This document shows positions 55,767-56,485 of a stretch of DNA of 64,000 nucleotides, piece by piece. Within the stretch, counting starts at the first letter, position 1; each line of letters opens with the position of its first letter. Below the pieces are notes generated by a model that did not search any database, was not told the origin of the DNA, and was given only the letters and a program-made list of their open reading frames with translations. The stretch comes from Escherichia coli (GTDB taxonomy: Bacteria; Pseudomonadota; Gammaproteobacteria; Enterobacterales; Enterobacteriaceae), in NCBI RefSeq assembly GCF_016903815.1, contig NZ_CP069973.1. One strand, written 5' to 3'. Both the position numbers and the translations under genes were made by a program.

Positions 55767-56485
55767 GTGAATGTCAATTTCTTTGTCACCTGTATTGGTG
55801 ACGCCCTGAAATCAAGAATGGCACGAGACTCCGTGCTGCTACTGGAAAACTCGGCTGTCGCGTAAATTTCCCGGAGAAACAGGGATGCTGCGGTCAGCCT
55901 GCGATCAATAGTGGTTATATCAAAGAAGCGATTCCAGGGATGAAAAATCTGATCGCCGCACTGGAGGATAACGACGATCCCATTATTTCACCGGCTGGCT
56001 CCTGTACCTATGCCGTAAAAAGTTACCCAACGTATCTGGCGGATGAGCCTGAATGGGCATCACGTGCCGAAAAGGTTGCCGCGCGTATGCAGGATCTCAC
56101 CTCTTTTATTGTTAATACATTAGGGGTAGTCGATGTAGGTGCCAGTTTGCAAGGGAGAGCGGTGTATCACCCATCTTGTAGCCTGGCCCGTAAGCTGGGG
56201 GTGAAGGACGAGCCACTTATGCTGCTGAAAAATGTGCGTGGACTGGAGCTGTTGACCTTTGCTGAACAGGATACCTGCTGCGGATTTGGCGGCACGTTCT
56301 CGGTCAAAATGGCCGAAATATCCGGCGAGATGGTGAAAGAAAAGGTTGCGCACCTGATGGAAGTCCGCCCTGAGTATTTAATTGGTGCTGACGTGAGTTG
56401 CCTGCTGAACATCAGTGGGCGATTACAACGGGAAGGGCAGAAAGTCAAAGTAATGCATATTGCTGAAGTGCTGATGAGCCGCTGA
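55767..56485 (+). pseudogene. ykgE: LutA-like cysteine-rich (CCG-domain) protein YkgE, apparently frameshifted
   Basis: N-terminal MNVNFFVTCIGDALKSRMARDSVLLLE reads from GTG 55767 and hits TAA at 55863-55865; the rest continues in the -1 frame (ORF 55940-56485); break is at the A-run 55846-55849. Confidence 0.65.

Follow-up and report, generated by a model that had tools for sequence, protein, structure and literature searches.

The ykgEFG operon of E. coli is the homologue of lutABC in Bacillus subtilis and of lldEFG in Shewanella oneidensis, and in K-12 its first gene, ykgE (b0306), is a single open reading frame of 239 codons set in the gene order rclR - ykgE - ykgF - ykgG - ykgH - betA. 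One question then is how much the cell depends on this operon. In E. coli MP1, deletion of ykgEFG lowered fitness in vitro only with L-lactate under nitrate respiration, and the deletion produced no defect in mouse colitis models, with LldD as the enzyme of consequence there (PMC9701030).

The window analysed here, a stretch of 64,000 nucleotides from E. coli (contig NZ_CP069973.1), has the same gene order as K-12, but an A5 run in ykgE is one A short, such that the single frame of K-12 is replaced by a 32-codon stub with the rest of the gene in the -1 frame. Two kinds of described system resemble this arrangement. Programmed -1 sites, such as those of IS1 (A AAA AAC) and dnaX (A AAA AAG), have the -1 shift in common with ykgE, and in IS1 the A-run is likewise followed by C; in contrast to both, ykgE has four A's, no heptamer, no stimulatory structure and a split form that is not conserved in orthologues. 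A closer likeness is to the translated 'pseudo-pseudogenes' of Salmonella Typhi and Paratyphi A (PMC9122581), with which ykgE shares the deletion of one base from an A run, an otherwise intact and presumably transcribed gene, and a host-associated clonal lineage. Expression of the Salmonella genes is low, unprogrammed and without a defined mechanism (PMC9122581). Weighing the evidence set out below, we hold with a probability of roughly 0.9 that ykgE in the window is a genuine, inherited and recent frameshifted pseudogene, fixed in one clonal lineage, and that it represents ordinary gene decay.

The single-base loss and the frames it leaves

The window copy of ykgE, a lutA/lldE homologue, lies on the + strand at 55767-56485 and measures 719 bp as against 720 bp in K-12. 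Direct reading of this lactate-oxidation gene shows the loss of a single nucleotide, with aaaa at 55846-55849 (+ strand) where K-12 has AAAAA, and in the alignment with K-12 MG1655 this is the only gap (GGAAAAACTC in K-12, GGAAAACTC in the window). The lesion was called by comparison with the K-12 orthologue, a kind of call to which a chance test is inapplicable. Translation of the frame opened by GTG 55767 yields (M)NVNFFVTCIGDALKSRMARDSVLLLENSAVA*, a product of 32 codons closed by the TAA at 55863-55865; this residual 5' reading frame (55767-55865, + strand) comprises 27 native residues followed by NSAVA and matches no Pfam family. The remainder of YkgE is found in the -1 frame (read from 55766: ...GKLGCRVNFPEKQGCCGQPAINSGYIKEAIPGMKNL...), which is open from 55802, runs through to the stop at 56483-56485 on the + strand and has as its first start codon ATG 55940, where the open reading frame list places an ORF of 181 aa. 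Insertion of one A gives a 720-bp ORF of 239 codons that differs from K-12 ykgE at 12 of 720 nucleotides (98.3% identity) and at three amino acids (A102E, K118T, T152M). Relative to its intact orthologues, the frame is hence disrupted by one defined lesion.

An earlier note on this DNA, made from the letters and a list of open reading frames, had anticipated much of this picture. It recognised the gene as a LutA-like ykgE, an assignment that alignment with b0306 upholds; its positions for the A-run and for the TAA following GTG 55767 agree with the direct read and the translation; the ORF at 55940-56485 that it assigned to the -1 frame is indeed present, with an ATG start and 181 aa; and its proposal that a single missing A separates the sequence from an ORF of ~239 aa is what the K-12 alignment shows. 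The note had further described ykgF and ykgG as intact, and here too the annotation of strain 7/2 (both genes) and a profile score (ykgF) point the same way.

The neighbouring genes can be taken together. Upstream on the + strand, rclR (54385-55239) is intact both in the annotation of the identical strain 7/2 and in the open reading frame list. Immediately downstream, also on the + strand, ykgF (lutB/lldF, 56496-57923) encodes an intact protein of 475 aa, which matches the LutB/LldF model TIGR00273 over its full length with 777 bits against a cut-off of 444.8; its accession, WP_000023924.1, is common to 7/2 and to AST215, a strain in which ykgE is intact. It is followed by an intact ykgG (lutC/lldG, 57916-58611, + strand), for which strain 7/2, identical to the window here, carries the LutC/YkgG family protein WP_001366460.1. 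The gene thus stands in the context characteristic of LutA/LldE/YkgE members, with homologues of lutB/lldF and lutC/lldG directly downstream. Among NCBIfam models YkgE and YkgG reach no curated cut-off, the PGAP name being the generic '(Fe-S)-binding protein'. A promoter and terminator scan of 55240-56600 gave nothing above chance level, and an Rfam scan of the whole window gave no match at or near ykgE.

About 45 nt 5' of the ykgE start there is a G/C hairpin, CCCCC-GGAA-GGGGGG, at 55709-55723; its K-12 counterpart, CCCCC-GGTG-GGGGGG, has the same stem and a different loop. Because no T-run follows, this hairpin is not an intrinsic terminator, and it may represent an element of the 5'-UTR or one of REP-like type.

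The consequences for the protein are visible at the level of domains. In Pfam the repaired YkgE contains two CCG domains (PF02754, 117 bits, in two stretches), the 181-aa ORF contains one and the 32-aa stub none. As encoded in the window, no single ORF includes both cysteine-rich CCG domains in one polypeptide, and the locus is therefore a decayed, not a functional, member of the LutA/LldE/YkgE group. Profiles of related enzymes (the LdhH C-terminal module, GlcF, GlpC, TfrB and HdrB) align from residue 2 of YkgE, and with the solved HdrB chain 5odc_B the alignment covers residues 5-216, so that the N-terminal 58 residues, which lie outside the 181-aa ORF, are part of the conserved module. Since every possible product would be missing one CCG domain, we infer a loss of YkgE function.

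The question of recoding at the A-run

A lesion of this type could, in principle, be bypassed if full-length YkgE were restored as a regulated product, whether by ribosomes shifting into the -1 frame or by RNA polymerase slipping on the A-run. The direction of the required shift, -1, is compatible with this proposal, as is the A-rich stretch followed by C, which superficially resembles the A AAA AAC of IS1. The details of the site nevertheless speak against it. The zero-frame codons are CUG GAA AAC UCG, and the sequence G GAA AAC does not conform to the X XXY YYZ heptamer; it is unfit for the purpose because in the -1 frame tRNA-Glu would have to re-pair with GGA and tRNA-Asn with AAA. The segment 55850-55949 folds with an energy of -23.3 kcal/mol, no better than its shuffled versions, which average -23.1 (z = -0.05), so that no stimulatory structure is evident, and there is no GGAGG-like or SD-like motif in the 30 nt upstream of the shift site. 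Efficient slippage by the E. coli RNA polymerase needs a homopolymer of ~9 or more A/T, and a run of four A's is far below this length. Lastly, the two-frame layout is not conserved but derived, being present in 1.7% of genomes and in one recent lineage. Taken together, these properties make programmed restoration of YkgE highly improbable.

The window does contain a genuine programmed site, a few kb away from ykgE with its unprogrammed lesion. This is the -1 slippery heptamer A AAA AAC of classical type at 51173-51179, in the insA/insB overlap of an IS1 element of 768 bp (50867-51634, with the InsA ORF at 50922-51197 and the InsB ORF at 51116-51619) that is bounded by a 9-bp target duplication, CGCTTGATT. 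The element interrupts an aldo/keto reductase gene 5 kb upstream of ykgE. Of the 5,426 complete genomes just two, those of strains 2779 and 5283, share its junction, which 7/2, YDC107 and the outgroups all lack, and the window therefore comes from a small sub-branch of its lineage.

Distribution and descent of the A4 allele

Whether a homopolymer frameshift is real or an artefact is a question on which population data are informative. Alleles were counted with a 65-base query centred on the A-run, at an E-value cut-off that passes perfect matches only. Among 5,426 complete genomes of E. coli, exactly 90 (1.7%) have the A4 allele. Of 5,145 genomes that match overall, ~5,055 are in frame, with one base more (A5) and a lower identity to the query; the reading of these ~5,055 as A5 rests on sampled non-A4 rows, all 58 of which span 66 bases for the 65-base query. 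Set against reference genomes, as the earlier note had suggested, the intact gene is accordingly the norm, with A5 in K-12 and a single 239-codon ORF in ~98% of complete genomes.

The carriers of A4 were isolated from humans, dogs, a cat, cattle, pork, surface water and an estuary, in numerous countries and by numerous laboratories, and yet they are closely similar around the locus. Strain 7/2 shows 0 differences from the window over 8,801 bp and YDC107 5 over ~23,400 bp. PEC011, which with its genome of 4.76 Mb had the look of an outlier, was considered as an independent recurrence and rejected, as it belongs to the same lineage with 2 differences over 8,065 bp. A lineage marker was chosen independently of the indel and at a distance of 2.8 kb from it (58600-59000), with at least 10 mismatches to each non-carrier tested, and at ≥99% this marker also retrieves exactly 90 genomes. 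That the A4 set and the marker set are one and the same rests on these equal counts (90 and 90) and on the agreement of every sampled case. The sampled non-carriers are A5 and 0.6-1.7% diverged from the window, and no A4 allele was found outside the lineage with the 65-base query in the 5,426 complete genomes. The lesion is, in short, reproducible across independent assemblies and confined to one clade.

These data bear directly on the possibility that the window truly has A5 and an intact ykgE, and that A4 is an error of sequencing or assembly. Such a concern is legitimate, since homopolymer indels are the typical error of long reads and assembly artefacts account for many of the pseudogenes annotated in bacteria; the signature of such artefacts is disagreement among near-identical genomes (PMC11017572). 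Random homopolymer errors would be expected to scatter across lineages and to differ between near-identical genomes. Here, on the contrary, the identical A4 call is made in 90 independent complete assemblies, is absent from ~5,055 other genomes and is restricted to one haplotype background, as seen from the 90 genomes carrying the linked marker and from flanks with 0-5 SNPs per 8-23 kb. Moreover, a run of 4-5 bases is short for systematic error, and one carrier, WCHEC96200, is a Nanopore assembly that was polished with Illumina reads (PMC5762679). The near-identical carriers all agree on A4, which in practice rules sequencing error out. The earlier note had offered three explanations for the split frame, namely a pseudogene, a programmed shift and a sequencing error: the first of these stands, the second fails on heptamer, structure and conservation, and the third on the 90 assemblies of one lineage.

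The location of the lesion in a homopolymer, a substrate of slipped-strand switching, also brings to mind a phase-variable contingency locus, in which high-frequency switching between A4 and A5 would turn ykgEFG off and on. Phase-variable tracts characteristically differ in length among closely related isolates. The tract in ykgE, however, consists of just 4-5 bases and shows no variation in length within the lineage (90 A4 genomes as against 90 defined by the marker), such that switching of this kind is extremely unlikely.

The frameshift is already recorded in public annotation and is a very common kind of feature. RefSeq/PGAP flags ykgE as 'pseudo; frameshifted' in genomes of the ST405 group (CRT46_RS01550 in 7/2, YDC107_RS18365 and ACUCNQ_RS18255), the gene of PEC011 being likewise annotated as a frameshifted pseudo CDS, and the flagged copy in 7/2 has the same lesion as the window at matching coordinates within 8.8 kb of identical sequence, with no difference at ykgE. 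Among the papers listed by a literature search, none gave an account of a ykgE pseudogene in ST405. The attribution to ST405 starts from WCHEC96200, an A4 carrier that is ST405 and of phylogroup D (PMC5762679). The carriers further include isolates named '405' and one O102:H6 strain, and it appears from near-identity and strain names that beyond WCHEC96200, too, they would form one clonal lineage, the ST405 / O102:H6 group of phylogroup D.

As to the direction of change, the repaired (A5) sequence was used as query for the ancestral state, as a haplotype of 802 bp. An identical 802-bp haplotype with A5 is present in four genomes, namely NRZ14408 (two deposits), AST215 and isolate 362, in which ykgE is intact and annotated as WP_001102122.1; the flanks in these strains are ~1% diverged and the neighbouring proteins are under other accessions. 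The closest outgroups hence have an undisrupted gene. With A5 in the nearest relatives that share the ykgE haplotype, the A4 deletion is therefore derived, and it is young, because zero further changes have occurred in 801 bp among the best 30 genomes listed.

A segment of fdeC (47460-47860) was tried as a second lineage marker and rejected as non-diagnostic, since it retrieves 122-123 genomes, among them the A5 strains Ecol_316 and MS14384. These two strains have the fdeC allele of the window, but their ykgE is intact with A5 and their flanks are 0.6-1.2% diverged. At ≥99% the fdeC segment is shared by 122 genomes as against the 90 carriers for the ykgG/ykgH segment at 58600-59000, a difference which indicates a mosaic (recombinant) ancestry around the locus and does not contradict fixation of A4.

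Frameshift calls are found in other genes as well. Intact in the window (58854-59522, - strand), the neighbouring ykgH is annotated as frameshifted in the sister lineage (NRZ14408 and isolate 362, at 13156-13706 of each fetched segment), whose ykgE is intact. Further upstream, ykgL (~36128-36353 in the window) carries the annotation 'frameshifted' in each of the three phylogroup-D genomes that were examined (524-749, 629-854 and 626-851 of the fetched segments). As this holds whether ykgE is intact or broken, the pseudogene call for ykgL is either older than that for ykgE or distributed differently.

The operon and the lineage after the lesion

One A was dropped from the A5 run, with replication slippage as the simplest cause, in an ancestor of the ST405 group and on an otherwise unchanged ykgE haplotype, and every sampled member inherited the deletion. 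Translation from the native GTG ends after 32 codons, and full-length YkgE, the Fe-S subunit with two CCG domains of the YkgEFG (LutABC/LldEFG-type) respiratory L-lactate dehydrogenase, would no longer be made at a normal level. The sole possible restart would be at ATG 55940, and its product would be without residues 1-58 and hence without most of the first CCG domain. The effect need not be limited to ykgE. With ~630 nt left untranslated ahead of ykgF, expression of ykgFG may be cut by lost translational coupling or by Rho polarity, and a reduction through polarity is plausible.

We would expect, then, that YkgEFG-dependent L-lactate respiration is probably gone from the lineage, which would rely on LldD instead. 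Loss of YkgEFG should be tolerated, because deletion of ykgEFG is without fitness cost in mouse gut models, and we infer that the activity has been lost, or nearly so, at little cost. No second lesion is found in ykgE, and ykgF and ykgG are intact, which fits a recent event and also fits residual use of the operon.

Residual use could take the form of a leaky pseudogene, in which low-level unprogrammed frameshifting, or re-initiation at ATG 55940, gives a trace of YkgE or a partly active C-terminal fragment. This possibility is compatible with a lineage-fixed frameshift pseudogene and has a precedent in Salmonella, in which 81 pseudogenes yield peptides downstream of the lesion, on average at ~10% of the intact level; the commonest cause there is single-base deletion, and 16 of 55 frameshift sites lie in mononucleotide repeats, mostly of A or T (PMC9122581). 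The persistence of intact ykgF and ykgG could be read in the same sense, but the recency of the deletion (zero changes in 801 bp in the best 30 genomes listed) would predict it equally well. A restart product, for its part, would be missing 58 residues at its N-terminus, and with them the first domain's CCG motif, and at ATG 55940 an AGGG motif directly abuts the start codon with zero spacer. On balance we consider leaky production of YkgE unlikely.

A further proposal is that the frameshift is a metabolic change that defines the ST405 high-risk clone as a lineage, as opposed to neutral decay. Nitrate-linked respiration of L-lactate by YkgEFG would then have been lost under selection, or a leaky allele would strongly tune down a still functional enzyme through unprogrammed -1 slippage, as in the Salmonella cases. 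If true, this could account for the integrity of ykgF and ykgG; we nevertheless regard it as rather improbable.

The A4 allele is a clean single-site marker of a multidrug-resistant E. coli lineage that has spread globally (90 A4 genomes as against 90 marker genomes, with none among the ~5,055 others), and it predicts for this lineage an absence of the YkgEFG respiratory L-lactate dehydrogenase and a dependence on LldD. The case also illustrates that population data alone can tell a homopolymer frameshift from a sequencing artefact, although no new mechanism is involved.

Elsewhere in the window, matches at the Rfam gathering score comprise a tRNA at 11239-11311 (+), a C4 antisense RNA at 12202-12290 (-) and isrK at 12313-12391 (-), a combination that suggests a P2/P4-type prophage or island integrated beside the tRNA. 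A further Rfam match, to the IS009 RNA, lies at 27625-27825.
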